Position numbers and translations under genes: made by a program
Shown: piece after piece, positions 31,385-54,457 of the stretch
How the letters are laid out: each line of letters begins with the position of its first letter
How positions within the stretch are numbered: position 1 is the first letter of the stretch
NCBI GenBank assembly: GCA_040768905.1
Contig: JAXGMA010000001.1
Location: forward strand, 723,806 to 787,805
DNA length: 64,000 nt
From: Christensenellales bacterium
GTDB taxonomy: Bacteria > Bacillota > Clostridia > Christensenellales > SZUA-584
Direction of reading: 5' to 3'
Notes under the pieces: generated by a model
The model's database searches: none
Told to the model about the DNA's origin: nothing
The model's input: the letters and a program-made list of their open reading frames with translations, nothing else

Positions 31385-31474
31385 AGACTCGTCCATGGAT
31401 GAAAAAAAGTTATGTATGCCTTGGCTTGTATGTCAGGCATTTATTGATTATTTCTTGTTTTGTTGAGATTATTA

Positions 31475-31503
31475 TTGACAGTGAAAAAAATAGTGGGTAT
31501 TAT
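31475..31503 (+). promoter_or_regulatory. SigA-type promoter of the left island operon
   Basis: TTGACA (31475-31480), 17-nt spacer, TATTAT (31498-31503), followed by a CAA-rich leader. Confidence 0.5.
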
Positions 31504-31577
31504 AATAACAAACAACAACAAACAACAGAATTAGACAGGCGAAATCAAATTTACTATTTCTTTATGGAGTAAAAAAA

Positions 31578-32363
31578 TTGAAAACGCAACAGCACACAAA
31601 TCATCAAAAAGAAGATTTTTCCCTCAATGGAAAAACGACACTGATCACCGGCGCTGCCGGCGGTATTGGGTACGCCATCGCAGAATTGTTTATAAGGAAA
31701 GGGAGTCAGCTTGTTCTTTTCGACATCTCTGACGACATAGCGGAAAAAGCAGAAAGCCTAAGGCGAAATGGATGCACGGTGTTATCCTATAAGGTGGATT
31801 TATGTGATCTGAATGCCATCAAGGATGCCTTTGATGATGCAACTGGGAAAATCGGCCATATCAATGTACTTGTCAATTGCGCAGGCATAGGGCCGCTTGC
31901 AAAGGCGCATGAGTTTCCTGTTGAGACATGGAAAAAAACCTTTGATATCAATCTGAATGCCCCGTTTTACTTATCGCAGCTCGTTGCAAAAAAGCTTATT
32001 GCGGACGGCAAACCCGGAAAAATCATCAATATAGCATCACAGGCGGGCATCGTGGCTATTGACGGGCATTTGGCGTATACATCAAGTAAAGCCGCCTTGC
32101 TCGGAATGACAAAATCTATGGCCTTTGAGTGGGGCAAATACGCGATCAATGTAAATGCGATTTCGCCGACTGTGATCATGACTGAGCTGGCTGCAGGATA
32201 TTGGAAGGATGATGTGGCGAAATCCGCGCTTCAAAAAATACCGCTCGGGCGGTTCGGACAGCCCAATGAAGTTGCCTCTGCGGCTTTGTATCTCGCGTCT
32301 GACGAAGCCGGTTTGATAACAGGATCCAATCTTGTCATTGACGGCGGGTATACAATCAACTAA
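31578..32363 (+). CDS. Short-chain dehydrogenase/reductase (SDR), polyol/sugar-acid dehydrogenase-like
   Basis: TGAAGGIGYA cofactor motif, catalytic YTSSKAA, C-terminal GSNLVIDGGYT; TTG start 8 nt after GGAG. Confidence 0.85.
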   Translation: MKTQQHTNHQKEDFSLNGKTTLITGAAGGIGYAIAELFIRKGSQLVLFDISDDIAEKAESLRRNGCTVLSYKVDLCDLNAIKDAFDDATGKIGHINVLVNCAGIGPLAKAHEFPVETWKKTFDINLNAPFYLSQLVAKKLIADGKPGKIINIASQAGIVAIDGHLAYTSSKAALLGMTKSMAFEWGKYAINVNAISPTVIMTELAAGYWKDDVAKSALQKIPLGRFGQPNEVASAALYLASDEAGLITGSNLVIDGGYTIN

Positions 32364-32408
32364 AGGCACACGTTTAATCAGTATCAACATATTTATCGAA
32401 AGGAGAGT

Positions 32409-33503
32409 ATGGTGGCCGAATCGGCATATGCCGCAAAGGCACCATGCGCATCGCAAATGGAAAAGAGAAAAGCTGCAGTTTTGTACGGCCCGAAAGACAT
32501 CAGGATAGAAATGATCGATATGCCCAAGATAGGCGAACATGATGTGCTTGTCAAGGTCAGAAGCGTGGGCATCTGCGGATCAGACCTGCACTATTATAAA
32601 GATTTCAAGATGGGCAAAGATGTCGTCACTGGCCCCCATATACTTGGGCATGAGTGTGCCGGAGATATTATGGAAGTCGGGAGTGCAGTAAAAAACAGAA
32701 AACCTGGCGACAGGGTCGCAGTTGAACCTGGCGTTCCGTGTTTTCATTGTGAGTATTGCCTGACCGGAAGATATAACCTGTGCGCAAATATGGTATTTCG
32801 TTCTCACCCTATGACTGAAGGCGCTTTGACTGAATATCTGGTGACTCCGGCAGCAATGACATTCCTGATGGATGATTCTATGAGCTATGACTGCGGAGCC
32901 ATGATAGAGCCTTTGTCGGTGGGGGTGCATGCCTTGCAGCGCGGCACTGTGAAGATGTGTGATAAAATAGCCATTTTCGGATGCGGCACGATTGGCCTTT
33001 GCACTTTGATGGCGGCAAAAGCCATGGGCGTATCCAAAGTGTATATGTGCGATATAAACAGTTTTCGTATCAATCTGGCCAAAGAATACGGTGCAGATAT
33101 CGTCATTGACTCCAGCCAGAGTGATTTTTATAAGACTGTCATGGATGCCACACAGGGCTTTGGCGTTGACGGGGTTTTTGATACTGTTGCCAACGATTTC
33201 ACACTTTCAAATTGCACAAGGATCTCAAAAAGAGGCGGCGTGGTGACGCATATCGCGATGTACAAGGATCCTATTGCACCGCTTAACATGTATGATCTGA
33301 TTGATAAGGAAATGGATTTCAGAGGAATATTCAGATATGCCAACACCTATAAGCTTGCGGTTGAGCTTGAGTCAAACGGCCAGACTGATCTTCAAAAGCT
33401 GATCACGCATACATTCCCTGTGGATGACATCAAAAACGCAATGGAAATGGCGCTTTGCAATCTCGGGACAAAAGATGTAATGAAAGTTGTTGTCAGATTT
33501 TAA
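32409..33503 (+). CDS. Zinc MDR dehydrogenase, sorbitol/xylitol (L-iditol 2-) dehydrogenase-like
   Basis: GICGSDLHYY, GHECAG, structural zinc CFHCEYCLTGRYNLC, EPLSVGVHA, GCGTIG. Confidence 0.85.
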   Translation: MVAESAYAAKAPCASQMEKRKAAVLYGPKDIRIEMIDMPKIGEHDVLVKVRSVGICGSDLHYYKDFKMGKDVVTGPHILGHECAGDIMEVGSAVKNRKPGDRVAVEPGVPCFHCEYCLTGRYNLCANMVFRSHPMTEGALTEYLVTPAAMTFLMDDSMSYDCGAMIEPLSVGVHALQRGTVKMCDKIAIFGCGTIGLCTLMAAKAMGVSKVYMCDINSFRINLAKEYGADIVIDSSQSDFYKTVMDATQGFGVDGVFDTVANDFTLSNCTRISKRGGVVTHIAMYKDPIAPLNMYDLIDKEMDFRGIFRYANTYKLAVELESNGQTDLQKLITHTFPVDDIKNAMEMALCNLGTKDVMKVVVRF

Positions 33504-33586
33504 ACGGCTCATGCTTTAAGTGCCATCATCAAAAAAACAAAGCAGTCAATGCTTTAATAAAATTTGAAAAGAGACGGTAGTACAGT

Positions 33587-34633
33587 ATGAAGGTAGCATA
33601 TTATTATGGAATCGGCGATATCAGGATGGAAGAGAAAAAAGTACCGGATATCAAGGAAAATGAGATTCTCATTAAGGTGAGGGCCTGCGCGGTATGCGGA
33701 ACTGATTTGAGGATCTTCAAATTCGGCCATTTCAAGATTCCGCAAGGCACAAAAAGAGTTCTCGGGCATGAGATAGCAGGTGAGATAGCTGCTGTCGGCA
33801 CAAATGTTAAAGGGTATAAAGTTGGAGAGAAGGTGGCCGTCCCGCCGAACATAGGGTGCGGCAAGTGCCGCGAATGCATGAAAGGCAAAAACCAACTATG
33901 CGCGCAATACGAAGCATTTGGCATCAGCCTGGACGGCGGTTTCCAGGAATATATGGTTGTTCCCGATTTTGCCGTCGCGTCAGGCGCAGTCTTCTCTGTG
34001 CCGGAAGGTTTATCATTTGAAGAGGCCGCGCTGGCCGAATCATTTTCATGTGTTTACAACGCCTTTGATTCGCTCAAGACTTCTCCGGGAGACACTGTAC
34101 TTGTCATCGGTGCCGGCCCGATCGGGAACATGCATGTCATTATCAACAAGCTGGCCGGAGCAACAAAAATCATGGTTGCCGATATCAATATGAAAAGGCT
34201 GGAGGAGTCAGAAAAATTCGGAGCAGACGTTATCATTGATACTTCAAAGCAAGATATTGTAGAGATGGTCAAACAAAATACAGACGGGCTTGGTGCGGAC
34301 GTTGTGATTACGGCCTGTTCAGTACCCGATTTGCAGGCAACTGCGCTTGAACTGGCAGCGACTTGCGGCAGGATCAATTTCTTTGGCGGGCTGCCCTTAG
34401 GGAAAGAATACGTGACATTGAATACAAATCTTATCCACTATAAGGAGCTGAGCGTACTTGCAACAACAGGGTCAAGCAAAGATGACTTTTATAAGACGCT
34501 GCACATACTTGCATCTGGCAGAATCAGCTTAAAGCCTTTGATCAGCCATAGATACAAAATAGAAAATATCAATGAAGCCTTTAAAATGGCTGCGTCGGGA
34601 GACGCGATGAAAGTATTTGTGGTCAATGAATAA
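33587..34633 (+). CDS. Zinc MDR dehydrogenase (paralogue 2)
   Basis: CAVCGTDL, GHEIAGE, CGKCRECMKGKNQLC, GAGPIG. Confidence 0.8.
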   Translation: MKVAYYYGIGDIRMEEKKVPDIKENEILIKVRACAVCGTDLRIFKFGHFKIPQGTKRVLGHEIAGEIAAVGTNVKGYKVGEKVAVPPNIGCGKCRECMKGKNQLCAQYEAFGISLDGGFQEYMVVPDFAVASGAVFSVPEGLSFEEAALAESFSCVYNAFDSLKTSPGDTVLVIGAGPIGNMHVIINKLAGATKIMVADINMKRLEESEKFGADVIIDTSKQDIVEMVKQNTDGLGADVVITACSVPDLQATALELAATCGRINFFGGLPLGKEYVTLNTNLIHYKELSVLATTGSSKDDFYKTLHILASGRISLKPLISHRYKIENINEAFKMAASGDAMKVFVVNE

Positions 34634-34659: not shown

Positions 34660-35721
34660 ATGGGTTCATCTATGGAAGCTGCTGTGCTTTATGCACCGGG
34701 CGATCTAAGGGTAGAAAAAGTTCAATTCAATAAAGAGCCAGACAGTAACGAAGTTTTGGTTGAAGTCAAGGCTGCCGGTATATGCGGTTCAGATACCGAC
34801 AGGATAATGAAAACAGGGACTTACAGCTTTCCGACCATACCCGGCCATGAGTTTTGCGGTGTGATAAGCAAAGCAGGTGACAGCGTCGAGGGGTTTAAAC
34901 AAGGGGACAGGGTTGTCGTGATCCCTATTTTGCCGTGTTTTGCGTGTGATTCGTGCCAAAAAGGCAACTACGGGCAGTGCATTACCTATGATTACATGGG
35001 CTCGAGATCGGACGGCGGCTTTGCGCAGCACATCAAAGTCAAGCCGAAAAATCTCATTCATTTACCTGATAATGTCTCCTTCATTGAGGGCGCAATGATA
35101 GAGCCCGCGGCTGTGACGCTTCACGGTATTCGTAAAATTCCCATCAAGGCGGGTGACACCACAGCCGTTTTGGGATGCGGTACTTTAGGGCTGCTCGCTA
35201 TTCAGTTTATAAAAATCCTCGGCGCCACTAAAGTGATCGCAGCTGATATCGATAAAGACAAATTAAAGCTCGCCAAAGAACTGGGCGCAGATACTATCAT
35301 TGATGCATCCAAAGTGGACTCAGCAGAAGAAATCATGCGGATCACAGGCGGAAAAGGCGTAGAAGCAGTGGTCGAGACAGCAGGATTGTCACTGACTCAG
35401 GAACAGTGCATAAGGGCTGCAGCCAAGCAAGGCAGGATACTGTATCTTGGCTCATCGCATAAGGATGTTGTCATACCGCCAAAGACATTTGAGCTAATTA
35501 TCAGGAACGAGCTTAAGATCGCAGGCTCATGGAACTCATATTCTGCACCATTCCCGGGTGTTGATTGGCTGGCGACTCTTGGCTATGTAAAAGACGGCAG
35601 GTTAAAGCTCGAACCTCTGATGTCCCATCAGTGCAGTTTGAAGCAGCTGCCGGAAATGATAAAGAAAATGTATGAAAGGAAGATAAATTTCAACAAGATA
35701 TTGGTTATAATGAGTAAATAA
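34660..35721 (+). CDS. Zinc MDR dehydrogenase, galactitol-1-phosphate 5-dehydrogenase (GatD)-like
   Basis: GICGSDTDR, GHEFCGV, CFACDSCQKGNYGQC, and YMGSRSDGGFAQ, which resembles the GatD segment FIGSRRDGGFAE. Confidence 0.78.
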   Translation: MGSSMEAAVLYAPGDLRVEKVQFNKEPDSNEVLVEVKAAGICGSDTDRIMKTGTYSFPTIPGHEFCGVISKAGDSVEGFKQGDRVVVIPILPCFACDSCQKGNYGQCITYDYMGSRSDGGFAQHIKVKPKNLIHLPDNVSFIEGAMIEPAAVTLHGIRKIPIKAGDTTAVLGCGTLGLLAIQFIKILGATKVIAADIDKDKLKLAKELGADTIIDASKVDSAEEIMRITGGKGVEAVVETAGLSLTQEQCIRAAAKQGRILYLGSSHKDVVIPPKTFELIIRNELKIAGSWNSYSAPFPGVDWLATLGYVKDGRLKLEPLMSHQCSLKQLPEMIKKMYERKINFNKILVIMSK

Positions 35722-35885
35722 TCTATAATAAAAGCATCGGGTGTATTTCTGTTTTTTGAAACATAGCTGAGTGCCTCGTATCTTGTTCGAGGATAATGCA
35801 GACGGCAAAGCCATCAGCTATGGCGAGAAGAAGGAGATTTGCCCCAAAATGTCTTTTGACAAATAAAAAATATAAGGAGTCATTT

Positions 35886-37406
35886 ATGCAGACAAAGCTT
35901 ATGATGGCCGTAGATCTTGGGACCAGCTTTATTAAGGTGGGTGTATACGACACACAAGGCAACTGTCTGGTGATTACTTCGGAGCCCGTAAAAGAACATT
36001 GCCCCAAACCCGGTATCTATATTCAGTATGGCGATGAAATATTTACTTCTGTACTGGCAAGCATAAACAGCGCGGCAGCAGAGCTTGGTGAAAGATCCGG
36101 CAATGTTGAAGCGATTTCGTTTACAGGTCAGATGGCAGGCTTCATGGGTGTCGACAAAGACTGGAACGACATCACAACATGGTCTTGCTCTCTGGATGGC
36201 AGATATTTGCCTTTCATTGACAGAATGATGCAAGAACATGCCGACCTTTTTTTAGAAGAGGCGGGCACAAACTCGCCGGTCATGGCCCCGAAGATCAAAT
36301 GGTTCGAGCATGACTTTCCCGAAGAATCAAAGAAAATCGCAAAATACTGCATGATCAGCAGCTATGTCCTTGGAAGATTGGGCGCTGTGCCTATTGAAGA
36401 GGCTTCCATCAACAGGTCATATCTTGAATGGACGGGACTCTCAGACATAAGGAATGATAAGTGGTCCGAAAAAGTGTGCAGTGCTTTGTCGATCGATAAA
36501 AATACGCTTCCCAAAATTGTTCAATCGTATGATATTTGCGGGCACTTATCCGCTGAAATGGCGGGCAAGATAGGTTTGAAAAGCGGCATTCCGCTTATCT
36601 CAGGCTGTGGAGACAAGCCCGCGGGATGCCTCGGGGCGGCTGTCGTTGAACCCGGGGAGGTCATACTTGAAGCGGCTTCCTATGCCGGGATGAGCTGCTG
36701 TGTGGAAAGCTATAAACCCGATTATGACAGCCGGCGCGTCGATCTGATCCCTTCTGCCATACCCGGAGAATTCTATATGCACAATTTTCTTGCAGGGTCA
36801 GGCATCACTTTAAAGTGGTTTATTGATAATTTTGCTGCAGATACCGGCCAGCCGTCCGAAGCTTTTCGTATCATTGAAAACAACATTGCAGGTATTGAAC
36901 CGGGCTCAGACGGGTTGCTTGCTATCGGCATGCTTGGCGGTAGGGCCATGCCTTTTGACGGAAACATCAGAGGCATGTGGATGAATTTCAACTGGACGCA
37001 TAAAAAAGAGCATTTCTACAGGGCATTGCTGGAATCATACTCGTATGAATTTGCTCTGACGCTCGATACATTAGACAAGCTATACACAGAATATGCCTTT
37101 AACAATGTGAAAATCATCGGCGGAGGTGCAAAATCTGTGATTTGGAACCAAATGAATGCTGATGTATGCAGGAGAACCTTCTCGACGCTGAACAGAAGCG
37201 ATGTTGCGCTTTGGGGCGCTTCGATCATTGCAGGAAAAGCGGTCGGCATTTTCGATGATATGAAAAAGACGGCAAGAGAACATGTGAAGGTGCTTAAAGA
37301 TTATAAACCCGACCCTGATATGTATACTAAATATGAAAAATTTATGAAGACATATGCGCAATATATCGTTTCGTTGAGCGGTCATTTTAAAAACCTTAAC
37401 AAATAA
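35886..37406 (+). CDS. FGGY-family carbohydrate kinase (xylulokinase-like)
   Basis: MAVDLGTSFIKVGVYD N-terminus, IIGGGAKSVIWNQMNADV C-terminal motif. ATG 35886 is preceded by AAGGAG; the track ORF starts at 35796. Confidence 0.85.
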   Translation: MQTKLMMAVDLGTSFIKVGVYDTQGNCLVITSEPVKEHCPKPGIYIQYGDEIFTSVLASINSAAAELGERSGNVEAISFTGQMAGFMGVDKDWNDITTWSCSLDGRYLPFIDRMMQEHADLFLEEAGTNSPVMAPKIKWFEHDFPEESKKIAKYCMISSYVLGRLGAVPIEEASINRSYLEWTGLSDIRNDKWSEKVCSALSIDKNTLPKIVQSYDICGHLSAEMAGKIGLKSGIPLISGCGDKPAGCLGAAVVEPGEVILEAASYAGMSCCVESYKPDYDSRRVDLIPSAIPGEFYMHNFLAGSGITLKWFIDNFAADTGQPSEAFRIIENNIAGIEPGSDGLLAIGMLGGRAMPFDGNIRGMWMNFNWTHKKEHFYRALLESYSYEFALTLDTLDKLYTEYAFNNVKIIGGGAKSVIWNQMNADVCRRTFSTLNRSDVALWGASIIAGKAVGIFDDMKKTAREHVKVLKDYKPDPDMYTKYEKFMKTYAQYIVSLSGHFKNLNK

Positions 37407-37469
37407 GTAAGTGTAATAAACAATCATGGCTACGCCAAATTTAATTTATTTTAAGCGGAGGGAAGAGTG

Positions 37470-38492
37470 ATGAAACAGGCAGTAATGATAGAACCGGGGA
37501 AAATAGAATTTCGAGATGTCGATATTCCGAAAATCAATCCGGATGAAGTATTGATCAAGACACATCGCATCGGCATATGCGGTTCGGATATCCATGTTTA
37601 TCACGGCAAGCATCCGTACACCTCTTATCCGATCGTTCAGGGCCACGAGATCTCGGGCGAAATCGCCAAAGTCGGTGAAAATGTGCAAGGCCTTAAAGAA
37701 GGAGACCTAGTGACGGTCATGCCTCAGGTTGTGTGCGGAGAATGTTACCCTTGTCTTCACGATCAGTATCATATTTGCGATAATTTAAAAGTACTGGGGT
37801 TTCAAACGACGGGCACGGCTTCAGAGTATTTCAAGATCAATGCAGCCAGCGTGCTGAAGACTGACAGTATCACAGACTTAAATGATATCGCCTTTATCGA
37901 ACCCGTCGCTGTGGCCGTCCACGCGCTTGGTAGGCTGGGCGATATAAGCGGTAAAAAAATACTGGTTCTCGGCGCGGGACCGATCGGCAATCTGATCGGG
38001 CAGGCAGCAAAAGCATTGGGTGCACAGCAGGTAATGATCACTGATGTAAGCGATTTTCGTCTGGAGCTGGCAGCAAAATGCAATATAGACCATTGCATCA
38101 ACACACAAAAGGTTGATTTGGGCTCCGCGCTGGTTGAAAAATTCGGCCATGACAAAGCAGACTGCATTTTAGACTGCGCCGGTGTCAGCGCATCCATTGA
38201 TGCAGCCATCAGCAACGCAAGAAAAGGCTCCGATATTGTTGTTGTCGCGGTGTTTTCAAAAAAGGAAAGCGTCGATCTTGGGCTTATACAAGACAGGGAG
38301 CTTCGGCTGATCGGTACGCTGATGTACAAAAAAGAGGATTTTTTGAAAGCCATCGATATCATTGCAAAAAAACAAATCAACATCGGGATCCTCGTGACCA
38401 ATACATTTGGCTTTGATGAGTTTTCTGATGCTTATGAATTTATTGAAAAACAAAAAGATCAGGCGATGAAAATCATAGTTCAATTAGATTAA
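37470..38492 (+). CDS. Zinc MDR dehydrogenase (paralogue 4, YdjJ/threonine-DH-like)
   Basis: GICGSDIHVY, GHEISGE, CGECYPCLHDQYHIC, GAGPIG; RBS GGAGGG. Confidence 0.8.
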   Translation: MKQAVMIEPGKIEFRDVDIPKINPDEVLIKTHRIGICGSDIHVYHGKHPYTSYPIVQGHEISGEIAKVGENVQGLKEGDLVTVMPQVVCGECYPCLHDQYHICDNLKVLGFQTTGTASEYFKINAASVLKTDSITDLNDIAFIEPVAVAVHALGRLGDISGKKILVLGAGPIGNLIGQAAKALGAQQVMITDVSDFRLELAAKCNIDHCINTQKVDLGSALVEKFGHDKADCILDCAGVSASIDAAISNARKGSDIVVVAVFSKKESVDLGLIQDRELRLIGTLMYKKEDFLKAIDIIAKKQINIGILVTNTFGFDEFSDAYEFIEKQKDQAMKIIVQLD

Positions 38493-38510
38493 TACATAGG
38501 GGGGGATATA

Positions 38511-39935: not shown

Positions 39936-40014
39936 AAAAGCAGCATAGAAAATACAACATAAACTAAAAAACAAAAATAAAAAACAAAAAACAAAAAACA
40001 AGAGGGAGATGTTC

Positions 40015-40909: not shown

Positions 40910-40936
40910 AGCCGGAGAAGCAGTGCTTCTCCGGCT
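40910..40936. terminator. Bidirectional hairpin between the convergent epimerase and DeoR genes
   Basis: AGCCGGAGAAGC / GCTTCTCCGGCT near-perfect 12-bp stem with A/T-rich flanks on both sides. Confidence 0.6.
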
Positions 40937-43139: not shown

Positions 43140-43169
43140 TTGACAAAAACACGCGGATAGAGATATAAT
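43140..43169 (+). promoter_or_regulatory. SigA-type promoter of the Fe-ADH / tautomerase unit
   Basis: TTGACA (43140-43145), 18-nt spacer, TATAAT (43164-43169). The palindrome TGCAATTGCA lies at 43201-43210 in the leader. Confidence 0.5.
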
Positions 43170-44888: not shown

Positions 44889-44917
44889 TTGACAAGCCTA
44901 TATAGAATAGATAAAAT
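44889..44917 (+). promoter_or_regulatory. SigA-type promoter of the ABC-transporter operon, with a ~160-nt leader
   Basis: TTGACA (44889-44894), 17-nt spacer, TAAAAT (44912-44917). Confidence 0.45.
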
Positions 44918-46607: not shown

Positions 46608-47614
46608 AGAATGATCAAATAAATCAAAACGGCAAAGCTTTTTCGGTTAAAGAATTCGTGCTCAGGTACAATGCTGTCATTATGCTTATCGCTTTAATCA
46701 TCGTATCAAGCTTGCTTTCCAATGTGTTTTTCACCACGATAAACATTTTTAATCTTCTGCGGCAAAATACACCCTTGCTTATGGTCAGCTTAGGGATGCT
46801 CATGGTCATCTTAACAGGCGGGATCGATCTTTCTGTGGGCTCTATTGCCGGTGTCAGCGCGATGGTATTATCAGTAGCCATAGAATCGTGGAAATGGAGC
46901 AGTGCAGTCGGATTGATCATGGGGATACTCTTTGCCTTGATCATTGGGTTTGCCATCGGCAGTTTCAGCGGCTTGCTTGTATCCATACTCCGCATGGCGC
47001 CTTTTGTCGCCACGCTCGCAGTCATGACGATGGGACGCGGGCTTGCGTTCCTGATCACAAACGGCCAGCCGGTCAGGCTGTCTACAGATATGACGGCGAC
47101 AAAGATCTTAAACGAAATCGGCAGCGGCAATGTGCCTTTGCTGGGTTTTCCCTGGCCGATTTTGATCGGCATCATCGTTGTTGTCTTGTTCATTCTCGTG
47201 ACACGGTATACGACATTTGGTAGACTTGTCATTGCAACAGGCAGCAATGAAACTGCGGTTCGTCTTGCGGGTATCACCGTTGAAAAATATAAATTTTTCG
47301 CATATGCACTCAGCGGTGTCTTGAGCGCTTTGGCTGGAATCATATCAACATCAAGAGCAACGATAGGCGTACCGATAGCGGGACAGGGTTATGAACTAGA
47401 TGCAATCGCTGCATGTGTGATCGGCGGCGCCAGCCTCGCAGGCGGGAAAGGCACAGTGTTCAACACTTTGATCGGCGTTATAGTATTAGGCTTGATCACA
47501 AACATTATGAACCTTTTAAGTGTTGCGGCTTATCCGCAGCAAATAATAAAAGGCGCTATAATTATACTCGCTGTGTTGCTTCAGGGTATCACCAGCAAGA
47601 AGGACAGTGTGTAG
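46604..47614 (+). CDS. Sugar ABC transporter permease (RbsC-like)
   Basis: Multi-TM protein with the GGIDLSVGS motif; ATGA overlap with the ATPase stop. The track ORF starts at 46583. Confidence 0.9.
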   Translation: MKNDQINQNGKAFSVKEFVLRYNAVIMLIALIIVSSLLSNVFFTTINIFNLLRQNTPLLMVSLGMLMVILTGGIDLSVGSIAGVSAMVLSVAIESWKWSSAVGLIMGILFALIIGFAIGSFSGLLVSILRMAPFVATLAVMTMGRGLAFLITNGQPVRLSTDMTATKILNEIGSGNVPLLGFPWPILIGIIVVVLFILVTRYTTFGRLVIATGSNETAVRLAGITVEKYKFFAYALSGVLSALAGIISTSRATIGVPIAGQGYELDAIAACVIGGASLAGGKGTVFNTLIGVIVLGLITNIMNLLSVAAYPQQIIKGAIIILAVLLQGITSKKDSV

Positions 47615-47760: not shown

Positions 47761-48867
47761 ATGACTCAGATATTTGGATCGCCGGGGAAATACATACAGG
47801 GCTTTGGCGAGCTCAACAGAATAAAGCAGCATATCTCATGGATCGGAGATTCATATCTTGTAATTGCAAGTCAGAACAGGATAAATGATCTTGGAAAAAA
47901 GATAAAAAACAGTTTCGGGTCAGATTTCCACGTTATCTTCGAAAGGTTTAACGGAGAAAGCACAAAAATTGAAGTTAAGCGCCTTGCTGATATCGCAACA
48001 AAAGAAAAATGCAAAGGTATTATTGGCATGGGCGGCGGTAAAGTCATTGATACCGCAAAAACAGTCGGCGACCAGTTAAATCTGCCCACAGTGATCATTC
48101 CGACGACAGCGTCAAATGACGCTGCGACGAGTGCATTGGCTGCCATGTATTTTGAAGACGGCGCCTTGGATGAACTTGTATTTTTCAATAAAAACCCGGA
48201 TATCGTTCTGGTTGATACGGAAGTCATCATGAATGCGCCTGTCAGGTTTCTGGTGGCTGGTATGGGCGATACGCTTTCAACCTATTTTGGGGCGCGTGTA
48301 TGTGTTCAAGGATATAAAAACAATTACTACAATGCTAAAGCGACCGAAACATCCTTTGCGCTTGCAAAGCTGTCCTACGAACTGGTCAGAAAATACGGAT
48401 TGTCCGCAAAGATAGCCTGTGAGAACAAAGTCATGACGAAAGATCTTAACCGGATCATCGAGGCGAATATTTTGCTGAGCGGCGTGGGCTTTGAGACCAA
48501 CGGCATTGCTTCCGACCATTGCTTCTATTTTGGTTTTTGTGACTTAACGCACAGGGAAGAACACATGTATCACGGAGAATACGTTTCGTTTTCAACTTGC
48601 TGCATGCTTGTGCTTGAAGGGGCGCCCAAGGAAGAGTTGGATGAGATATACAGTTTTTGCGTCAGCGTCGGCCTTCCGATCACTTTAGACCAGATCATGT
48701 TGGGTGATCTGACTGACGAAGAATTTGATATTGTGGCAAAAGGCGTCTTAAAGCATGATACGACACACTACCACCCGTTTGAAGTCACGCAGACAGATGT
48801 TTTGGGTGCGATAAAAACGGCAGACGCCATAGGTAAACTATACCTTTCGGGAAACCGATTGGTTTGA
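47761..48867 (+). CDS. Glycerol dehydrogenase-like iron-ADH-family polyol dehydrogenase
   Basis: FGSPGKYIQG start, GMGGGKVIDTAKT, PTTASNDAATS; length 368 aa as for GldA. Confidence 0.8.
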   Translation: MTQIFGSPGKYIQGFGELNRIKQHISWIGDSYLVIASQNRINDLGKKIKNSFGSDFHVIFERFNGESTKIEVKRLADIATKEKCKGIIGMGGGKVIDTAKTVGDQLNLPTVIIPTTASNDAATSALAAMYFEDGALDELVFFNKNPDIVLVDTEVIMNAPVRFLVAGMGDTLSTYFGARVCVQGYKNNYYNAKATETSFALAKLSYELVRKYGLSAKIACENKVMTKDLNRIIEANILLSGVGFETNGIASDHCFYFGFCDLTHREEHMYHGEYVSFSTCCMLVLEGAPKEELDEIYSFCVSVGLPITLDQIMLGDLTDEEFDIVAKGVLKHDTTHYHPFEVTQTDVLGAIKTADAIGKLYLSGNRLV

Positions 48868-48920: not shown

Positions 48921-50279
48921 ATGAACAGAGCAAAAAAGAGTTTTGTATTGTTGCTGGCTTTATGTATGGTCTTTGCCATCGTGATGGCAGGATGTACAGA
49001 AGCGCCCCCGGCACAGCCGGCAGACCCCGCGAAACCGGCAGACCCCGCGAAACCGGCAGACCCCGCGAAACCGGCAGAACCAGCGGCCAATACGGACGGC
49101 GAGCTGCATGAACTTTACACATTGTTGCCGCAAACCTCGCTGACGGGTGTTGTCAGCCCGGAGCTAAAGGACAGAGCGAACATCGACAAGGCATGGCCTA
49201 AGACTCCGAAAGACCCCAATAAAATAGTGATCGGCTGGACGGAGATCACGCTTGGCAACCCATGGTTCATCGGAGTTCAGAAGGCTGCCGAAGAGGCAGC
49301 AGCCAAATACGGCTTCCAGCTCGATATGCTTGTGGCCGATGGCAGCGTTGAAAGACAGAGCGAGCACATCGATTCATTCATCACCAGGGGCGTTGACATT
49401 ATCGTCGTTGACCCATGTGACGTTTTGGGTCCTGTGAATGACATCAAGAGAGCTGTCGAAGCCGGTATCCCGGTCGTCGGCATGGGCACGGTTATGGACG
49501 ATTCAGCCCCGATCTTAACGACAGTTATTCTTAATCCGTTTGAAGTCGGATATTCCTGCGGTGAGTATATTTCCACAAAATACGAACCGGACCAGAACGT
49601 AAACCTTGCCATCGTGCTTGGCGTAATGGGCAACTCGACATCTGAAAGCCGTATCTGCGGCGGCATCAGCGGCATGATCGCTGAACGCCAGAGACAAAAC
49701 GGCACATTCACATCAAAAGAAGATGCCATCCTTGCAGGCTACAACTTGTTTGACCAGGTGAAGAGAACAGGCAAAGGAGAAGACCCTGTCAATAAATTTA
49801 CGGTACTGGCATATGGCGACGGAAATTGGACAGAAGAAGACGGCCTGGCTGTGACGGAAGATATCCTGACAGCTGTCGGCGACCAGCTTGACCTGATCAT
49901 TGCATGTAATGACTTCGAAGCACTTGGCGCTCTAAAAGCAGTTAAGGCTCGTGGCCTTCAGGACAAAATCAAGATCGCTGCATTTGCTGACGGCGCAAAG
50001 ACAGGCCTTGACGCAGTCAAAGCTGGCGACCTTATCTGCACCGGCACATTCGGCGGCCCTGGATTTGGCGCACATACCATCGAGTTCATCAAAGCGATCT
50101 TCATAGACGGAAAAGATCCGAGCAATCTGCCCATGGGAACATTCGGCCCCGTGTCTGTCATCAACCGCGAGAACATGGATCAGTACTATGATGATGACCC
50201 GAACAACGAGTTTTACAAGATACCTGGCTTTGAATTCCCCAAATCAATACCTGAAATAAAAGCATCATTTGGGAACTAA
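48921..50279 (+). CDS. Sugar ABC transporter substrate-binding lipoprotein with repetitive PADPAK linker
   Basis: Lipobox VMAGC, (PADPAK)x3 linker, then a periplasmic-binding-protein type-I fold (IVIGWTEITLGNPWF). Confidence 0.85.
   Translation: MNRAKKSFVLLLALCMVFAIVMAGCTEAPPAQPADPAKPADPAKPADPAKPAEPAANTDGELHELYTLLPQTSLTGVVSPELKDRANIDKAWPKTPKDPNKIVIGWTEITLGNPWFIGVQKAAEEAAAKYGFQLDMLVADGSVERQSEHIDSFITRGVDIIVVDPCDVLGPVNDIKRAVEAGIPVVGMGTVMDDSAPILTTVILNPFEVGYSCGEYISTKYEPDQNVNLAIVLGVMGNSTSESRICGGISGMIAERQRQNGTFTSKEDAILAGYNLFDQVKRTGKGEDPVNKFTVLAYGDGNWTEEDGLAVTEDILTAVGDQLDLIIACNDFEALGALKAVKARGLQDKIKIAAFADGAKTGLDAVKAGDLICTGTFGGPGFGAHTIEFIKAIFIDGKDPSNLPMGTFGPVSVINRENMDQYYDDDPNNEFYKIPGFEFPKSIPEIKASFGN
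49017..49079 (+). repeat. Perfect 18-bp tandem repeat (3.5 copies) inside the SBP gene
   Basis: CCGGCAGACCCCGCGAAA at 49017, 49035 and 49053, plus a partial copy to 49079. In frame, it encodes PADPAK. Confidence 0.95.
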
Positions 50280-50417: not shown

Positions 50418-51449
50418 ATGAAAGCTGCTGTTGTAAATAGTATTGGAAAAGTATGCCTGGAGGAAAGAATCATACCGCAGGCAGGAAAAAATGAAGCCCT
50501 TGTTAAGGTCATATATGGTGGCATATGCGGAACGGATGTCCACGTTATGATGGGCAAACACAAAACAGCTAAATACCCTGTTGTTTTGGGGCATGAGTTT
50601 ATTGGCAAGCTTGTTGAACTCAACACGGCAGATGACATCGATGCAAAACCGGGAGACCTCGTTTTTGTACAGCCGTTTGAGTCCTGTGGAATCTGTGAGG
50701 CCTGCATTGAGGGCAGAGAGAATGTCTGCAGCAAACTTGCGATTCTCGGTGTGCATCGCGATGGCTGTTTTGCTGAGTATGTCTCGGTTCCTGCCAGTAA
50801 AGTCTTTAAAATGCCGGATAACCTTGATATGAAGCTGGCTACACTTGTCGAACCGTTGGCGGTCGCGGTCCATGATGTGAAACAAAGCGGTTTAAAGCTT
50901 GGCCAAACAGCTTTGATAATTGGCGGAGGGCCCATCGGTTTACTGATCGCTATAGTAGCAAGATTGGCGGGCGCAACAAAAATCGTTGTCAGCGAAGTGA
51001 ATGACTATAGGCTGCGTTTTGCTGAAAAACTTGGTTTCAAAATCATAGATGCAAAAAAATCAGATTTGAGAAGCATGGCCAAAGACTTCACCGGGTCGAA
51101 AGGTTTTGATGTGGTGTTCGAAGTTTCGGGCACAAAAATAGCGACTGAGCAAATGACGGAGTGCGTGAAGACTGGTGGAAGGATCGTGATCGTCGGCGTA
51201 CCGGGAGATAAATATGTTGTTGATACAGGATTGATGCTTGCCAAGGAGATCGAAATGGTGGGTGTCAGGATACACGCCACTAAAAATTATGTGGCCGCCA
51301 TTGAAATTCTTAAATCTAATATCATTAACGATCAGTTAATAGACTTTATTGACAGTGAATTTTCGTTGGATAAAATAGAAGAAGCGATGAAATATTCGAT
51401 CGAAGATCAGAAGCATTTTAAAACGCTAATAAAAATTGGGGAGATTTAA
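50418..51449 (+). CDS. Zinc MDR dehydrogenase (paralogue 5)
   Basis: GICGTDVHV, GHEFIGK, CGICEACIEGRENVC, GGGPIG. Confidence 0.82.
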   Translation: MKAAVVNSIGKVCLEERIIPQAGKNEALVKVIYGGICGTDVHVMMGKHKTAKYPVVLGHEFIGKLVELNTADDIDAKPGDLVFVQPFESCGICEACIEGRENVCSKLAILGVHRDGCFAEYVSVPASKVFKMPDNLDMKLATLVEPLAVAVHDVKQSGLKLGQTALIIGGGPIGLLIAIVARLAGATKIVVSEVNDYRLRFAEKLGFKIIDAKKSDLRSMAKDFTGSKGFDVVFEVSGTKIATEQMTECVKTGGRIVIVGVPGDKYVVDTGLMLAKEIEMVGVRIHATKNYVAAIEILKSNIINDQLIDFIDSEFSLDKIEEAMKYSIEDQKHFKTLIKIGEI

Positions 51450-51478: not shown

Positions 51479-52288
51479 ATGCGGAGGGGCATATTGATAT
51501 ATATCAACCAGGATAAGTGTATAGGATGCCAAAGCTGTGCAAAGGCTTGTCCAGTCAGAGTTTTGGAAATGGATTCAGATCAAAAGGCATTTGTCAAAAG
51601 GCCGACCTTTTGTATTCGCTGCGCCCATTGCTTAAGCGTCTGTCCTTCAGGCGCTGTCTCTTCAGATTTTGAAGATTCAGTACCGGATAAAAGCATAAAA
51701 GGACTTGATATGCCAAGCACTCAGCAGGTCGAGAACCTGATCCTAACAAGAAGAAGCATCCGCTCATATTCAAAGCAAGCCATTCCAAGAGAGATGATTG
51801 AAAAGCTGCTTTTGCTTGCAGCGCAGGCTCCGACGGCCAGAAATGCGCAGGATGTCAAGTATATCGTTGTATCTGATCCGGATAAAACCAAAGAGCTTGA
51901 AAAACTGGCACAAGACTATTTCAGAGCTCAAAAGAACGACAATATCGGAGTGATCACGAGAGATGCGGGTTTTGAGCTGCTGCTTGGAGCGCCTGTAACG
52001 ATCGGGTTCTATGCTGAAAAACGTGAACAGGGCAACGCCAATGAGGCATTATGGAATTGTCTGATCGCTGCGCACAACCTTTTGCTTGCAGCGCATGGCA
52101 TGGGGCTCGGCGGATGCTATAACGGGCTTCTGCTGCATGCTTACCGAAACAAACAGGAATTAAAAAGCTTTTTTGATATGCCAAAGGAAGCAGAAATCTA
52201 TATGTTTGTCGTTATTGGATATCCCGATCCGGACATTTATTATTCAGAGACCATTGCGAGAAAACATCCGCAAGTTATTTGGAGATAA
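51479..52288 (+). CDS. Ferredoxin-domain / nitroreductase-family fusion protein
   Basis: N-terminal 2x[4Fe-4S] motifs CIGCQSCAKACP and CIRCAHCLSVCP, fused to a nitroreductase fold (RRSIRSY ... ). TTG 51494 after GGAGGGG is an alternative start. Confidence 0.75.
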   Translation: MRRGILIYINQDKCIGCQSCAKACPVRVLEMDSDQKAFVKRPTFCIRCAHCLSVCPSGAVSSDFEDSVPDKSIKGLDMPSTQQVENLILTRRSIRSYSKQAIPREMIEKLLLLAAQAPTARNAQDVKYIVVSDPDKTKELEKLAQDYFRAQKNDNIGVITRDAGFELLLGAPVTIGFYAEKREQGNANEALWNCLIAAHNLLLAAHGMGLGGCYNGLLLHAYRNKQELKSFFDMPKEAEIYMFVVIGYPDPDIYYSETIARKHPQVIWR

Positions 52289-52315
52289 CAATTCTATTTT
52301 TGAGAGGTTTATAAC

Positions 52316-53485
52316 ATGATTGATTTTGAGTTTCAGAATAAAACGCGAATTATTTTTGGAAAAGGCAAAGAAAAAACGATCGGTGAGCAAATAAAGCCTT
52401 ACAGCAACAATATATTGTTTGTGCATTATGGCGACGGTATCATTGAGAGTTTGGGATTGTATGACAGTATAGTCGCTTCGCTGAAGGCAAATGGCATAAG
52501 CTTTACGGAGCTAAAAGGGATAAAGCCAAACCCTGAGTTGGGCAAGGTAAAAGAAGGCATAGAAGTTTGCCGGAAAAACAACATCGGTTTTGTGTTGGCA
52601 GTCGGCGGCGGCAGCGTGATCGACACAGTCAAAGGCATTGCAGCCGGTGTGCCATACAGCGGAGATCTCTGGGATTATTTTGAAGGCAAAGCAGGGATAG
52701 TACAAACAGCGCTGCCTACTGGAGTGATCGTGACGCTGCCCGCCTCAGGAAGCGAGACCAGTACCGGGACGGTCATCACGAAAGAAAACGGTAAATACAA
52801 AAGATTCATTGACAGCAACGAGCTTCGGCCACAGTTTGCGATTCTCAATCCTGAGCTTACTTTGAAGCTGCCTCCGTTTTTGACTGCATGCGGAATCGCA
52901 GACATCATCTCCCACACTATGGAGAAATATTTTACGCAGGTAAAAGGCGTTGACTTTATTGATCGGCTTTCGGAGGCGTTGATGCGTTCAATGATCGTCA
53001 ACGGCAGAAAACTTCTTGAATCTCCCGGGGATTATAATGCGCGTGCAGATGTAATGCTGGCGGCCTCGTTTTCTCACAACGGATATCTTGATTCCGGCAG
53101 GACTGCGGATTGGGCAAGCCATATCATCGAGCATGAGTTAAGCGCGCTGTACGGAGTAACCCACGCTGCCGGGCTGACGGCAGTAATCCCGGCCTGGATG
53201 TCATATGTATACAAAAGCGGGCTTGAACGCTTCGTTCAATACGCCGTAAGAGTCTGGGATGTTGATGTCGAATATGGAAGTTTTGAAGATGTCGCTCTTG
53301 AGGGCATAAAAAGAACAAAATTATTCTTTAAAGAATTAGGGCTGCCAACCAGCTTGAAGGAGCTGGATATTGATAACAGCCGATTTGAAGAAATGGCTGC
53401 AAAAGCCACAGAAAACGGAGATGTCGGAAGCTTTTTGAAGCTTGGCAAGCAGGATATCATCAATATCCTTGAATCTGCTTTATAA
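52316..53485 (+). CDS. Iron-containing alcohol dehydrogenase (butanol-dehydrogenase/YqhD-like)
   Basis: FEFQNKTRIIFGKG start, GGGSVIDTVKG, and the downstream His cluster (ISHTMEKY, HIIEHELS). Confidence 0.85.
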   Translation: MIDFEFQNKTRIIFGKGKEKTIGEQIKPYSNNILFVHYGDGIIESLGLYDSIVASLKANGISFTELKGIKPNPELGKVKEGIEVCRKNNIGFVLAVGGGSVIDTVKGIAAGVPYSGDLWDYFEGKAGIVQTALPTGVIVTLPASGSETSTGTVITKENGKYKRFIDSNELRPQFAILNPELTLKLPPFLTACGIADIISHTMEKYFTQVKGVDFIDRLSEALMRSMIVNGRKLLESPGDYNARADVMLAASFSHNGYLDSGRTADWASHIIEHELSALYGVTHAAGLTAVIPAWMSYVYKSGLERFVQYAVRVWDVDVEYGSFEDVALEGIKRTKLFFKELGLPTSLKELDIDNSRFEEMAAKATENGDVGSFLKLGKQDIINILESAL

Positions 53486-53529
53486 AGATGTGAATGAAAA
53501 AGGTTAAGACACGAAGAGGTATGTGATTT

Positions 53530-54363
53530 ATGAAAACAAGCTATAATGAAGCAACAGCGATGGGATGCTCGACGCTTGAGAAGGACCTTGTTCTTTGCGA
53601 AAAATACGGATTCGATTTTATTGAAATCAGGATTGACATGCTGCGAAAGTATTTGGATAAGCATTCAGCCGATGATTTGAAAGCGTTTTTTGATAACAGC
53701 CATATAAAACCTCACGCCTTTAATGCCATATATATTAACTTTTGTGATGATGGCGAATGGCAGTGCGTCATGGATGATTTTTTGCTGGCGTGCAAAGTCG
53801 GCGAAAAAATCGGCGACCATTATATCATCGTGTGCCCGAGAATCACGCCATTGCCATGCACACAAAGTGAGAAGGCGATATTTGAAGATTCGGTGGAGAG
53901 GCTTAACAAACTGGCGGATATAGGGGAAGGTTATGGCATGAATCTCGCTTTTGAACCGGTTGGCAATCCCGGCTGCTGTGTGAGGACGGTCAGACAGGCA
54001 TGGGATATCGTCAAATCAATAGACAGGGACAATGTCGGGATCACGGTCGATGCTTTCAATCTGTATTTGTACAACAAGCTGAGTAATTTTGAAGACATGA
54101 AAATGATCGACACTGATAAGCTTTTTGCGGTTCACCTTGATGACAGCGATGAAAAACCGCTTGAGCAGCTCGATCATTCAGACAGATGCTTTCCCGGGTT
54201 AGGCGTTATCAATCTTAAGAGCTATTTAGGCACTCTCAAAGAGATGAATTATAACGGCATGGTTTCCGTGGAGACCTTCAGGCCGGAATATTGGGAAAAG
54301 GATCCTGAATGGGTCATTAAGACAAGTTATGAATACACAAAGAAGATTTTAGAAGCATACTGA
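53530..54363 (+). CDS. Sugar phosphate isomerase/epimerase (xylose-isomerase-like TIM barrel)
   Basis: AFEPVG, DAFNLY, HLDD, VSVETF pattern of metal-dependent TIM-barrel isomerases. Confidence 0.72.
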   Translation: MKTSYNEATAMGCSTLEKDLVLCEKYGFDFIEIRIDMLRKYLDKHSADDLKAFFDNSHIKPHAFNAIYINFCDDGEWQCVMDDFLLACKVGEKIGDHYIIVCPRITPLPCTQSEKAIFEDSVERLNKLADIGEGYGMNLAFEPVGNPGCCVRTVRQAWDIVKSIDRDNVGITVDAFNLYLYNKLSNFEDMKMIDTDKLFAVHLDDSDEKPLEQLDHSDRCFPGLGVINLKSYLGTLKEMNYNGMVSVETFRPEYWEKDPEWVIKTSYEYTKKILEAY

Positions 54364-54417
54364 TTTTTTTAAGCTGACTTTCTTCATGGCGGTGATGATT
54401 TTCATGCCGCGACTTCT

Positions 54418-54457
54418 AACCTCAGATATGGCTCTGCTGTATCTGGGGTTTTGTTTT
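54418..54457 (+). terminator. Rho-independent terminator (right edge of the island)
   Basis: AACCTCAGATA / TATCTGGGGTT 11-bp stem (one G-U pair), 11-nt loop, then TTTTGTTTT. Confidence 0.7.

Follow-up and report, generated by a model that had tools for sequence, protein, structure and literature searches.

An oxidoreductase-rich candidate polyol and rare-sugar utilisation island downstream of clpX in a Christensenellales bacterium

Gene content and layout of the island

Directly after clpX, in a 64,000-nucleotide stretch of the genome of a Christensenellales bacterium (assembly GCA_040768905.1, contig JAXGMA010000001.1, positions 723,806 to 787,805 of the forward strand; hereafter the window), lies an island of ~23 kb that encodes predicted polyol- and sugar-converting enzymes, an importer and two regulators. 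An ORF scan revealed 20 intact open reading frames (ORFs) between 31578 and 54363, 18 on the plus strand and two, the regulators, on the minus strand. They are enclosed by two strong terminators (Table 1), as described in the initial annotation of this region, which was made from the sequence alone. Assignment of gene families with Pfam and NCBIfam models also agreed with the inventory given there. The ten oxidoreductases comprise five zinc-dependent medium-chain dehydrogenases/reductases (Zn-MDRs), one short-chain dehydrogenase/reductase (SDR), three iron-containing alcohol dehydrogenases (Fe-ADHs) and one ferredoxin-nitroreductase fusion. Besides an isomerase that is treated below, the remaining genes encode an FGGY kinase, a ketose 3-epimerase, a second TIM barrel, a tautomerase-superfamily protein, an ATP-binding cassette (ABC) importer of the carbohydrate uptake transporter 2 (CUT2) type, and regulators of the DeoR and LacI families.

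The block is split by an internal bidirectional terminator (40910-40936), which the initial annotation lacked. Unit A (31578-40884) consists of the SDR, three MDRs, the FGGY kinase, a further MDR, an isomerase with the fold of L-arabinose isomerase (AraA) and L-fucose isomerase (FucI), and the ketose 3-epimerase. The DeoR and LacI genes lie between the units on the opposite strand. Unit B (43254-54363) consists of an Fe-ADH, the tautomerase, the ABC ATPase and permease, a GldA-type enzyme, the solute-binding protein (SBP), the fifth MDR, the ferredoxin-nitroreductase, another Fe-ADH and an IolI-like protein. Three promoter-like sites were called, all of them as sigma-70-like consensus matches only. 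Directly upstream of the site at 43140-43169, in the divergent LacI/Fe-ADH intergenic region, five tandem copies of the 8-nt sequence AAAATATC occupy 43076-43136; for the AAAATATC repeats, an array of operators or an UP-like element is conceivable.

Every island ORF is full length relative to its family model. Five unit B genes were compared with their copies, 93-96% identical, on a 6.3-kb JGI metagenome contig (L088), and the ratios of nonsynonymous to synonymous substitution rates (dN/dS) were 0.035-0.135. Since the ORFs are full length and these ratios are low, the island genes are predicted to be functional. A pseudogenised or decaying island is ruled out by the intact ORFs and by dN/dS values of 0.04-0.14.

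Oxidoreductases account for 10 of the 20 island genes compared to about 3 of the 36 flank genes (Fisher p=8e-4). The nearest solved structure to the SDR is 4npc, named 'sorbitol dehydrogenase' (3e-64). In all five Zn-MDRs the Cys/His/Glu positions of the catalytic site and the structural-zinc motif CxxCxxCx7C are present, so the zinc motifs are intact as had been claimed. Because the five are only 28-33% identical to one another, recent tandem duplication of MDR genes is ruled out, and their sequences indicate old, divergent paralogues. The MDR at 37467 has a 43% identical homolog located between isomerase and epimerase genes in two other loci (L081/L082). The order of gldA and the SBP gene is the same in L088, and no gldA lies between permease and SBP genes in the related importer loci L081-L085. 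The tautomerase-like protein begins with Met-Pro, in keeping with the catalytic Pro-1 characteristic of the tautomerase superfamily. Its gene (44460) has a GC content of 0.325 and a GC content at third codon positions (GC3) of 0.31, far under the island average, which suggests a separate origin for this gene.

Table 1. Features of the island. Coordinates are those of the window; model scores are in bits and are given against the cutoff of the model; L-numbers denote loci in other genomes or metagenomes.
Feature	Coordinates	Strand	Evidence and remarks
Bidirectional intrinsic terminator	31347..31382	.	Left boundary, 3' of clpX; 15-bp perfect stem between A-run and T-run
Promoter-like site, unit A	31475..31503	+	TTGACA-17-TATTAT; 11/12 consensus match only
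SDR polyol dehydrogenase, GolD/DthD family	31578..32363	+	NCBIfam NF005309, 309.6 vs cutoff 286
Zn-MDR polyol-dehydrogenase-type enzyme 1	32409..33503	+	ADH_N + ADH_zinc_N; best NCBIfam models Tdh and L-idonate 5-dehydrogenase, all sub-cutoff
Zn-MDR polyol-dehydrogenase-type enzyme 2	33587..34633	+	Pfam/NCBIfam and zinc motifs; 43-44% identical homologs in L085 and L095
Zn-MDR enzyme 3	34660..35721	+	Nearest model galactitol-1-phosphate 5-dehydrogenase NF007642, 290 vs cutoff 550; not equivalog
FGGY sugar kinase, xylulokinase-like	35796..37406	+	FGGY_N + FGGY_C; best models sub-cutoff
Zn-MDR enzyme 4	37467..38492	+	Pfam/NCBIfam and zinc motifs
Predicted AraA/FucI-fold aldose-ketose isomerase, uncharacterised family	38511..39935	+	Predicted structure, profile, conserved residues
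Ketose 3-epimerase, D-psicose/D-tagatose 3-epimerase type (predicted)	40009..40884	+	NCBIfam NF051856 equivalog, 403.7 vs cutoff 300, match 1-287/287
Bidirectional terminator	40910..40936	.	Ends unit A and convergent DeoR gene; 12-bp stem, 8 GC pairs, seen on both strands
DeoR-family regulator	40972..41772	-	HTH_DeoR + DeoRC
LacI-family regulator	41985..43016	-	LacI + Peripla_BP_3; nearest model RbsR, sub-cutoff
Promoter-like site, Fe-ADH/tautomerase pair	43140..43169	+	TTGACA-18-TATAAT; 12/12 match
Fe-ADH, lactaldehyde-reductase/ErcA-like	43254..44429	+	Fe-ADH + ADH_Fe_C; ErcA 240, FucO 226, GbsB 226, all sub-cutoff
Tautomerase-superfamily protein, 114 aa	44460..44804	+	PF01361, 25.5 vs cutoff 22, E=1.2e-5; N-terminal Met-Pro
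Promoter-like site, ABC/redox unit	44889..44917	+	TTGACA-17-TAAAAT; 11/12 match
CUT2 ABC importer ATPase, two ABC domains	45078..46607	+	AraG 572, XylG 564, RbsA 545, all sub-cutoff
CUT2 ABC permease	46583..47614	+	BPD_transp_2
GldA-type glycerol/1,2-diol dehydrogenase	47761..48867	+	NF006941 subfamily, 406 vs cutoff 336; between permease and SBP genes
CUT2 solute-binding lipoprotein, (PAKPAD)n linker	48921..50279	+	Peripla_BP_4; signal peptide + Cys; dN/dS 0.135 vs L088
Zn-MDR enzyme 5	50418..51449	+	Pfam/NCBIfam and zinc motifs; dN/dS 0.074 vs L088
2x[4Fe-4S] ferredoxin-nitroreductase fusion	51479..52288	+	Fer4 + Nitroreductase; dN/dS 0.108 vs L088
Fe-ADH, YqhD-like	52316..53485	+	PRK15138, 277 vs cutoff 645; dN/dS 0.059 vs L088
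IolI-like TIM-barrel isomerase/epimerase	53530..54363	+	AP_endonuc_2; PDB 1i60 (B. subtilis IolI) 9e-61, full length; dN/dS 0.035 vs L088
Terminator of unit B	54418-54450 (right-boundary feature to 54460)	+	15-bp stem + T-tract

Isomerase, epimerase and kinase modules and the proposed route

The product of the gene at 38511, which had been described as FucI-like, matched no Pfam family at E<=0.01, and a phmmer search against the PDB gave no match. Its sole NCBIfam match was the sulfoquinovose isomerase SftI, at 134.9 bits against a cutoff of 700; a literature search on SftI returned nothing relevant. An AlphaFold (AF2) model was built on 47 homologs, with a predicted local distance difference test score (pLDDT) of 95.3 and a predicted template-modelling score (pTM) of 0.93. 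In a Foldseek search with this model, L-arabinose isomerases ranked at the top (probability 1.0, template-modelling score (TM) 0.76-0.82, 12-14% identity, whole-length superposition), followed by FucI and D-arabinose isomerase (TM 0.71-0.77). The fold of this protein, described earlier as FucI-like, is thus closer to AraA than to FucI. A profile of the isomerase family matched AraA at E=3.5e-7, aligning a cEgD motif with the GEGD of AraA and a C-terminal HH with its AHH, both of them active-site motifs of AraA. Residues E292, D294, D316, H331, H436 and H437 are invariant in the 47 homologs. On account of the fold match, the profile match and the invariant Glu, Asp and His residues, we assign the 38511 product as a predicted metal-dependent aldose-ketose isomerase of the AraA/FucI superfamily, in a separate, uncharacterised family. 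Although it shares the fold (TM about 0.8 to AraA) and the Glu-x-Asp, Asp and His-His positions of these enzymes, its low identity to them and the lack of any AraA/FucI Pfam or NCBIfam match above cutoff show that it is not AraA or FucI proper. At a threshold of E<=1e-30 the family comprises 757 50%-cluster representatives, and the closest homologs of the island protein are only 52-67% identical to it.

The adjacent epimerase aligns end to end (residues 3-290) with structurally and biochemically characterised ketose 3-epimerases in the PDB, namely the D-tagatose 3-epimerase (DTE) of P. cichorii (2ou4, 1e-89) and the D-psicose 3-epimerases (DPEs) of C. cellulolyticum (3vni, 7e-82) and A. tumefaciens (2hk0, 8e-80), as well as with 7x7w (8e-86). 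This places the 40009 gene in the DPE/DTE family, with a predicted ketose 3-epimerase activity. The FGGY kinase at 35796 scored best with the XylB model (TIGR01312, 197 bits against a cutoff of 380), whereas ribulokinase models gave 51-78. Homologs with 52-54% identity carry the automated name 'xylulokinase', and the closest PDB match was LsrK, at only 107 bits. The kinase homologs are 507-513 aa long and cover 94% of the query; its true start is probably about 30 codons downstream, as judged from this alignment. The protein previously listed as a second TIM-barrel isomerase is indeed an AP_endonuc_2 TIM barrel, and more specifically a homolog of IolI. A further xylose-isomerase-like TIM-barrel gene (AP_endonuc_2) with host-like composition and no NCBIfam match lies at 15610-16419, downstream of genes for an RpiR regulator and an HI0933-like flavoprotein.

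The closest PDB match of the SBP was 4ry9 (92 bits). An 18-nt tandem repeat within its gene (49007-49096) encodes a Pro/Ala-rich (PAKPAD)n linker after the lipobox Cys, and because of this repeat the SBP gene is the most GC-rich of the island. The DeoR regulator weakly matches the model of the L-fucose operon activator.

The neighbourhoods of isomerase homologs were compared at five independent loci in other Clostridia, one of them in a metagenome-assembled genome of Blautia. In three of these (L081, L083 and L085) the isomerase gene lies directly after a CUT2 ABC importer. Identity to the island importer is 61-63% for the ATPase, 56-58% for the permease (L081-L085) and 46-49% for the SBP, which is unusually long. 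In four (L081, L083, L085 and L091) one or two AP_endonuc_2 genes lie a few genes away from the isomerase, and all five of these partner genes exceed the D-psicose 3-epimerase equivalog cutoff (321-441 bits). The locus with the more distant isomerase (L093, 42% identical) has CUT2-type ABC components and no epimerase, and the importer-isomerase-epimerase module of L083 is without any dehydrogenase. Collectively, these gene neighbourhoods indicate that a CUT2 importer, this isomerase and a DPE-type epimerase form a recurrent module. In the island the module is split, with the isomerase-epimerase pair at the end of unit A and the importer in unit B, which ties the two units together functionally.

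The closest homologs of the FGGY kinase (69%) and of the DeoR regulator (66%) also adjoin each other, in L095/L096. Since the ABC-isomerase-epimerase and FGGY-DeoR groups recur separately, the island is a mosaic, in which two or more recurrent modules are combined with extra dehydrogenase and redox genes. The initial annotation had proposed one module for the uptake and interconversion of polyols or rare ketoses; this fits in general terms, but the single module gives way to a mosaic. Directly upstream of the closest FGGY homolog, L095 (JGI 3300048576) encodes a 443-aa protein without a Pfam match (8616-9947), which is a very distant member of the AraA/FucI superfamily (profile E=2e-11, ACEGD and SHH motifs). 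Kinase and neighbour thus look like a classical isomerase-kinase pairing. The L095 locus also holds genes for an old yellow enzyme, a PfkB, a class II aldolase and a second FGGY kinase. An uncharacterised block that is not in the window lies near isomerase or kinase homologs at L081:1991-3557, L091:1277-4779 and L095:14664-18805. In L091 and L095 it encodes a phosphotriesterase-family lactonase, a 313-316-aa protein without a Pfam match, a cupin-type glucose-6-phosphate isomerase, a 2-hydroxyacid dehydrogenase and an aldolase of the 2-keto-3-deoxy-6-phosphogluconate type; in L081 only the no-Pfam protein and the cupin-type isomerase are present.

The reading we favour, on balance, is that the island is a functional carbohydrate-utilisation locus for polyols and rare sugars, foreign in composition and most likely acquired, in which several inputs are funnelled to one kinase. 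The enzyme families of this scheme are observed, whereas its substrates and the order of its steps we infer. Unphosphorylated alditols and rare monosaccharides would be taken up by the CUT2 ABC system. Six divergent NAD(P)-dependent polyol dehydrogenases (the SDR and the five MDRs) would oxidise different alditols to 2-ketoses, and the AraA/FucI-fold enzyme would isomerise an aldose to a ketose. The 3-epimerase would invert free ketoses at C3, turning for instance D-psicose into D-fructose or D-ribulose into D-xylulose, so that the inputs converge on one ketose. The xylulokinase-like FGGY kinase would phosphorylate this ketose, most simply giving D-xylulose-5-P for central metabolism. DeoR, co-inherited with the kinase, and LacI would repress the units until an inducer arrives. 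The Fe-ADHs, GldA, ferredoxin-nitroreductase and tautomerase would probably serve redox balance in this hydrogenase-bearing anaerobe, or side substrates such as short diols, aldehydes or keto-cyclitols, and the IolI homolog may have a role of this kind too.

In its simplest self-contained version, the route would take pentitols and D-arabinose via D-ribulose and D-xylulose to D-xylulose-5-P. A hexose version, from allitol, altritol, D-allose or D-altrose via D-psicose to D-fructose, would be equally compatible with the epimerase and would require a fructokinase encoded elsewhere. The initial annotation had stressed that no aldolase, transketolase or phosphotransferase system (PTS) component is present to complete a textbook route. 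No such domain was found in the 20 island proteins with Pfam or NCBIfam. This is not a real gap, however, because a dehydrogenase, a ketopentose and an FGGY kinase suffice to reach xylulose-5-P, with the 3-epimerase able to supply a C3 inversion. As D-xylulose-5-P feeds straight into central metabolism, the island can do without an aldolase or transketolase of its own.

A less probable alternative is that several unrelated pathways lie side by side and do not form one network. Unit A would then be a pentitol/hexitol and aldose route, and unit B would handle another substrate class, such as keto-cyclitols (IolI-like protein and MDR) or short diols and aldehydes (GldA, FucO-like and YqhD-like enzymes), with the importer belonging to the isomerase-epimerase module only. 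The nearest neighbours do differ between parts of the island, with ABC, isomerase and epimerase in L081-L085 and FGGY and DeoR in L095/96. The three promoters, the internal bidirectional terminator and the two regulators favour separate units as well, as do the interruption of the otherwise conserved permease-SBP adjacency by gldA, the identity of the last gene as an IolI homolog and the range of gene GC content within the island (0.325-0.516). Against this, the isomerase-epimerase pair is in unit A while its conserved importer partner is in unit B, codon usage is homogeneous over both units, and unit B is conserved in gene order and under purifying selection in L088.

Composition, chromosomal context and origin

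The compositional contrast remarked on by eye in the initial annotation was borne out by measurement. Sliding-window GC falls from about 0.50-0.54 in the flanks to 0.41-0.47 in the island. Mean per-gene GC3 is 0.486 in the island compared to 0.585 in the 36 flank genes (Mann-Whitney p=1e-7), and GC content at first codon positions (GC1) is about 0.50 compared to about 0.57. AGA and AGG account for 64% of the arginine codons of island genes compared to 21% of those of flank genes; for CGC the figures are 11% and 41%, respectively. In a leave-one-out codon-usage likelihood test, 18 of 20 island genes and 33 of 36 flank genes were put in the right class.

Upstream of the island, the window carries the core genes smc, ftsY, ffh, rimM, trmD, deoB, pnp, dacA, surE, infC, ruvCAB, queA, tgt, proA, argH, argG, tig, clpP and clpX. 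Downstream are genes for a Zn-ribbon membrane protein, a cysteine desulfurase, thiI, a TetR/ABC exporter and an [FeFe]-hydrogenase. An N-acetylmuramoyl-L-alanine amidase with a type I dockerin domain is encoded at 2323-3498; together with the hydrogenase, it hints at an anaerobic, cellulosome-type Clostridia host.

A gap of 40 bp separates the clpX terminator from the start of the island. In the nearest ClpX-bearing loci (L001, L002 and L014) the order is clpX-lonB-lon-engB, although the compared loci are distant (ClpX <=76%). As noted in the initial annotation, lon and engB were not found in the 64-kb window, where the island follows clpX instead. Since the right flank is not lon/engB either, the site is a synteny breakpoint rather than a clean insertion between clpX and lon. 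The Zn-ribbon/cysteine desulfurase/thiI genes were found downstream of clpX in 0 of 80 ClpX loci, and an exact thiI match elsewhere is on a 1.3-kb contig without neighbouring genes. Exact look-ups of ClpX and of a 100% identical Zn-ribbon match led to no indexed contig. A more distant relative of the host (L086: thiI 77%, hydrogenase 85%, Zn-ribbon 41%) keeps this triad, and neither clpX nor the island adjoins it there. The Zn-ribbon protein (54469-56361, minus strand; 630 aa), which abuts the island, is fast-evolving, with relatives <=41% identical, and its divergent triad with cysteine desulfurase and thiI is conserved; its gene has an island-like GC3 of 0.49 and host-like arginine codons.

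Two further sequences carry parts of the island. L089 (GCA_040769305.1, JAXGLH010000044.1), 98.6% identical and from the same species, has clpP-clpX followed by the left 13 kb of the island in unchanged arrangement. Its alignment contains 166 gap positions over 15.5 kb and nearly all of its genes are broken up; the resulting short ORFs seem to stem from indel errors of long reads and not from real pseudogenes. The L088 contig matches 48186-54459 and keeps the order gldA-SBP-MDR-nitroreductase-FeADH-IolI. Its homology stops abruptly at about 54460; the stop of the convergent Zn-ribbon gene follows 9 nt further on. Taken together, the composition and the behaviour of the boundaries make a horizontal origin of the island quite probable, though it is not demonstrated by an empty site. 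The most likely source would be lower-GC anaerobic Firmicutes, or assembly from modules circulating among them. The claim of horizontal insertion made in the initial annotation thus stands as far as composition and the synteny break go and falls short of proof, as neither a relative without the island nor an integrase, a tRNA or flanking repeats were found. In the comparison of relatives that it had called for, L089 carries the island at the same place and the best ClpX match among GTDB species representatives is at 76% (a Caldicoprobacterales genome), with no closer relative there.

Several observations weigh against an acquired, funnel-type utilisation locus. On the side of function, no equivalog cutoff is reached by any of the MDRs, by the kinase, by the SBP or by the ABC subunits. 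We know of no FGGY fructokinase, hence the hexose outlet needs a kinase encoded elsewhere. The ferredoxin-nitroreductase, tautomerase and IolI-like protein have no obvious role in a polyol funnel, and the scheme leaves these three, the Fe-ADHs and GldA unexplained. Literature searches with incomplete coverage gave no description of this gene combination. On the side of acquisition, the window yielded no tRNA, Rfam element, boundary direct repeat, or integrase or transposase domain, and no island-free relative was found among GTDB ClpX loci or in metagenome scans. The divergent right junction of L088 spans only 33 nt, which match nothing in the window, and the sole other genomic copy with the left flank, L089, has the same arrangement. 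At the DNA level there was no plasmid match, and isomerase matches on plasmids were all <28% identical. Metagenome scans gave nothing with the Zn-ribbon protein and only the already known contig with the terminator sequence.

The absence of mobility genes, tRNA and direct repeats and the identical left junction in L089 would also fit a native block, in which inducible catabolic genes of low expression, beside highly expressed housekeeping genes, would owe their low GC3 and AGA/AGG-rich arginine codons to weak selection. Some flank genes deviate too, namely the Zn-ribbon gene by its GC3 and tig and clpP by codon log-likelihood ratios near 0. We nevertheless regard a native origin as unlikely. 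Accessory flank genes of low expression (TetR, ABC exporter, RpiR and HI0933-like) keep a host-like GC3 of 0.54-0.66, and therefore expression level alone is insufficient to explain the contrast. GC1, and hence amino-acid composition, is shifted as well, most genes are rightly classed in the leave-one-out test, the clpX-lon-engB order is broken at the island edge, and L088 homology stops at the terminator.

Comparison with known systems and implications

No characterised pathway matches the full gene set, as the initial annotation had maintained; the erythritol, tetritol, gat, altritol, als, fuc and iol systems each have defining genes that are missing here. In its logic the island resembles the classical pentitol operons. 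In Klebsiella, rbt and dal pair ribitol dehydrogenase with D-ribulokinase and D-arabitol dehydrogenase with D-xylulokinase, together with repressors. Like these operons, the island combines NAD-dependent polyol dehydrogenases that would yield a free ketopentose with an FGGY kinase and a repressor, and needs no aldolase; the co-location of the three holds at the family level only, and none of the island enzymes scores at equivalog level for the proteins of Klebsiella or E. coli. Unlike rbt/dal, it has six divergent dehydrogenases for one kinase, and in addition a free-ketose 3-epimerase, an AraA/FucI-fold isomerase and CUT2 uptake.

The E. coli D-allose (als) system resembles the island in its CUT2 importer and in isomerising and then 3-epimerising toward a fructose derivative. 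In als (AlsBAC, AlsK, RpiB/AlsI and AlsE), in contrast, isomerisation and 3-epimerisation take place on sugar phosphates and use unrelated enzyme families. Gut allulose use has been described as AlsE-based (PMC12216980). Membership in als was rejected, as no ROK, RpiB or RPE-family protein is encoded in the island and AlsA and AlsC models scored 508 against 772 and 167 against 396.

SBP-guided polyol pathways include those for D-threitol, L-threitol and erythritol in M. smegmatis and for D-altritol and galactitol in A. tumefaciens. They share with the island a CUT2 ABC importer and SDR/MDR polyol dehydrogenases, and the island SDR falls in the GolD/DthD family. The erythrulose kinases and isomerases of the M. 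smegmatis tetritol route have no counterpart in the island. The A. tumefaciens D-altritol/galactitol route uses tagatose kinase and a class-II-aldolase-family tagatose-6-P 4-epimerase; no PfkB or Aldolase_II protein is present in the island, and membership was rejected. The Brucella/Sinorhizobium erythritol pathway (EryA-B-C-H-I) has an FAD-dependent erythritol-phosphate dehydrogenase and TpiA2-/RpiB-type isomerases, and none of the 20 island proteins has a DAO/GlpD-type, triose-phosphate isomerase or RpiB domain. The E. coli gat system was rejected for want of PTS and aldolase domains and by the sub-cutoff GatD score at 34660 (Table 1). Of a B. subtilis-type iol operon the island has only the IolI homolog, with no IolG, E, D, B, C or J.

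A 6-deoxyhexose (fucose-like) or L-arabinose-like core is improbable. Such a route would use the isomerase, the FGGY kinase, an aldolase or 4-epimerase elsewhere in the genome, the FucO-like Fe-ADH for lactaldehyde reduction and DeoR as a FucR-like regulator. It draws on the AraA/FucI fold of the isomerase, on FucK and AraB being FGGY kinases, on the lactaldehyde-reductase-type models nearest to the Fe-ADH at 43254, on the weak DeoR match to the L-fucose activator and on an Aldolase_II gene near the kinase homolog in L095. The island, however, has no class II aldolase/epimerase or mutarotase, and the isomerase is only 12-14% identical to AraA and FucI. The fuculokinase model scored 97 against a cutoff of 471 and lactaldehyde reductase (FucO) models 226 against 523, on which grounds, with the absence of Aldolase_II and of FucI proper, membership in the fuc regulon was rejected. 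This reading would also leave the conserved free-ketose 3-epimerase partner without a role. We consider it very improbable that the dehydrogenases work mainly as reductases, making polyols from ketoses, aldehydes or dicarbonyls for detoxification or to dispose of electrons. In favour of this are the fermentative, anaerobic host with its [FeFe]-hydrogenase, the nitroreductase fusion of the island and the frequent action of YqhD-, FucO- and GldA-type enzymes as reductases. Against it, the locus bears the hallmarks of catabolism, namely a kinase, two repressors and a dedicated ABC importer of high affinity, and the importer-isomerase-epimerase module of L083 has no dehydrogenase.

Carbohydrate-utilisation islands are common, and one more is in itself no surprise. 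Interest centres on the conserved, uncharacterised importer-isomerase-epimerase trio. To our knowledge, DPE/DTE enzymes are known as biocatalysts, heavily used in industry for allulose production, while their natural role is poorly defined and their native pathways are essentially undescribed. Literature searches, again with incomplete coverage, found no account of an importer-isomerase-DPE module, of a native DPE role or of allitol/psicose catabolic operons. Unlike these biocatalysts, the island epimerase, like those of the other loci compared, is set among genes for the same type of importer and for this isomerase family, and the island thus points to a native context for free-ketose 3-epimerases. 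We put forward, tentatively and as a doubtful possibility, that the importer, the new isomerase family and the DPE-type epimerase constitute a non-phosphorylative route from a rare aldose to a common ketose that operates on the free sugar. It may, for example, lead from D-arabinose via D-ribulose to D-xylulose, or from D-allose or D-altrose via D-psicose to D-fructose. In this genome it may be fused with the six alditol dehydrogenases into a natural 'Izumoring'-like hub feeding one kinase.

If true, the non-phosphorylative trio would be the first physiological pathway for the 'D-psicose 3-epimerases', which have so far been mainly industrial biocatalysts. The island brings together, under two repressors, one kinase, one epimerase, two isomerases and six polyol dehydrogenases that diverge from each other. 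It thereby offers candidate enzymes for the interconversion of rare sugars in a compact form, and it is a candidate determinant of the degradation of sugar alcohols and rare sweeteners by anaerobic Clostridia.

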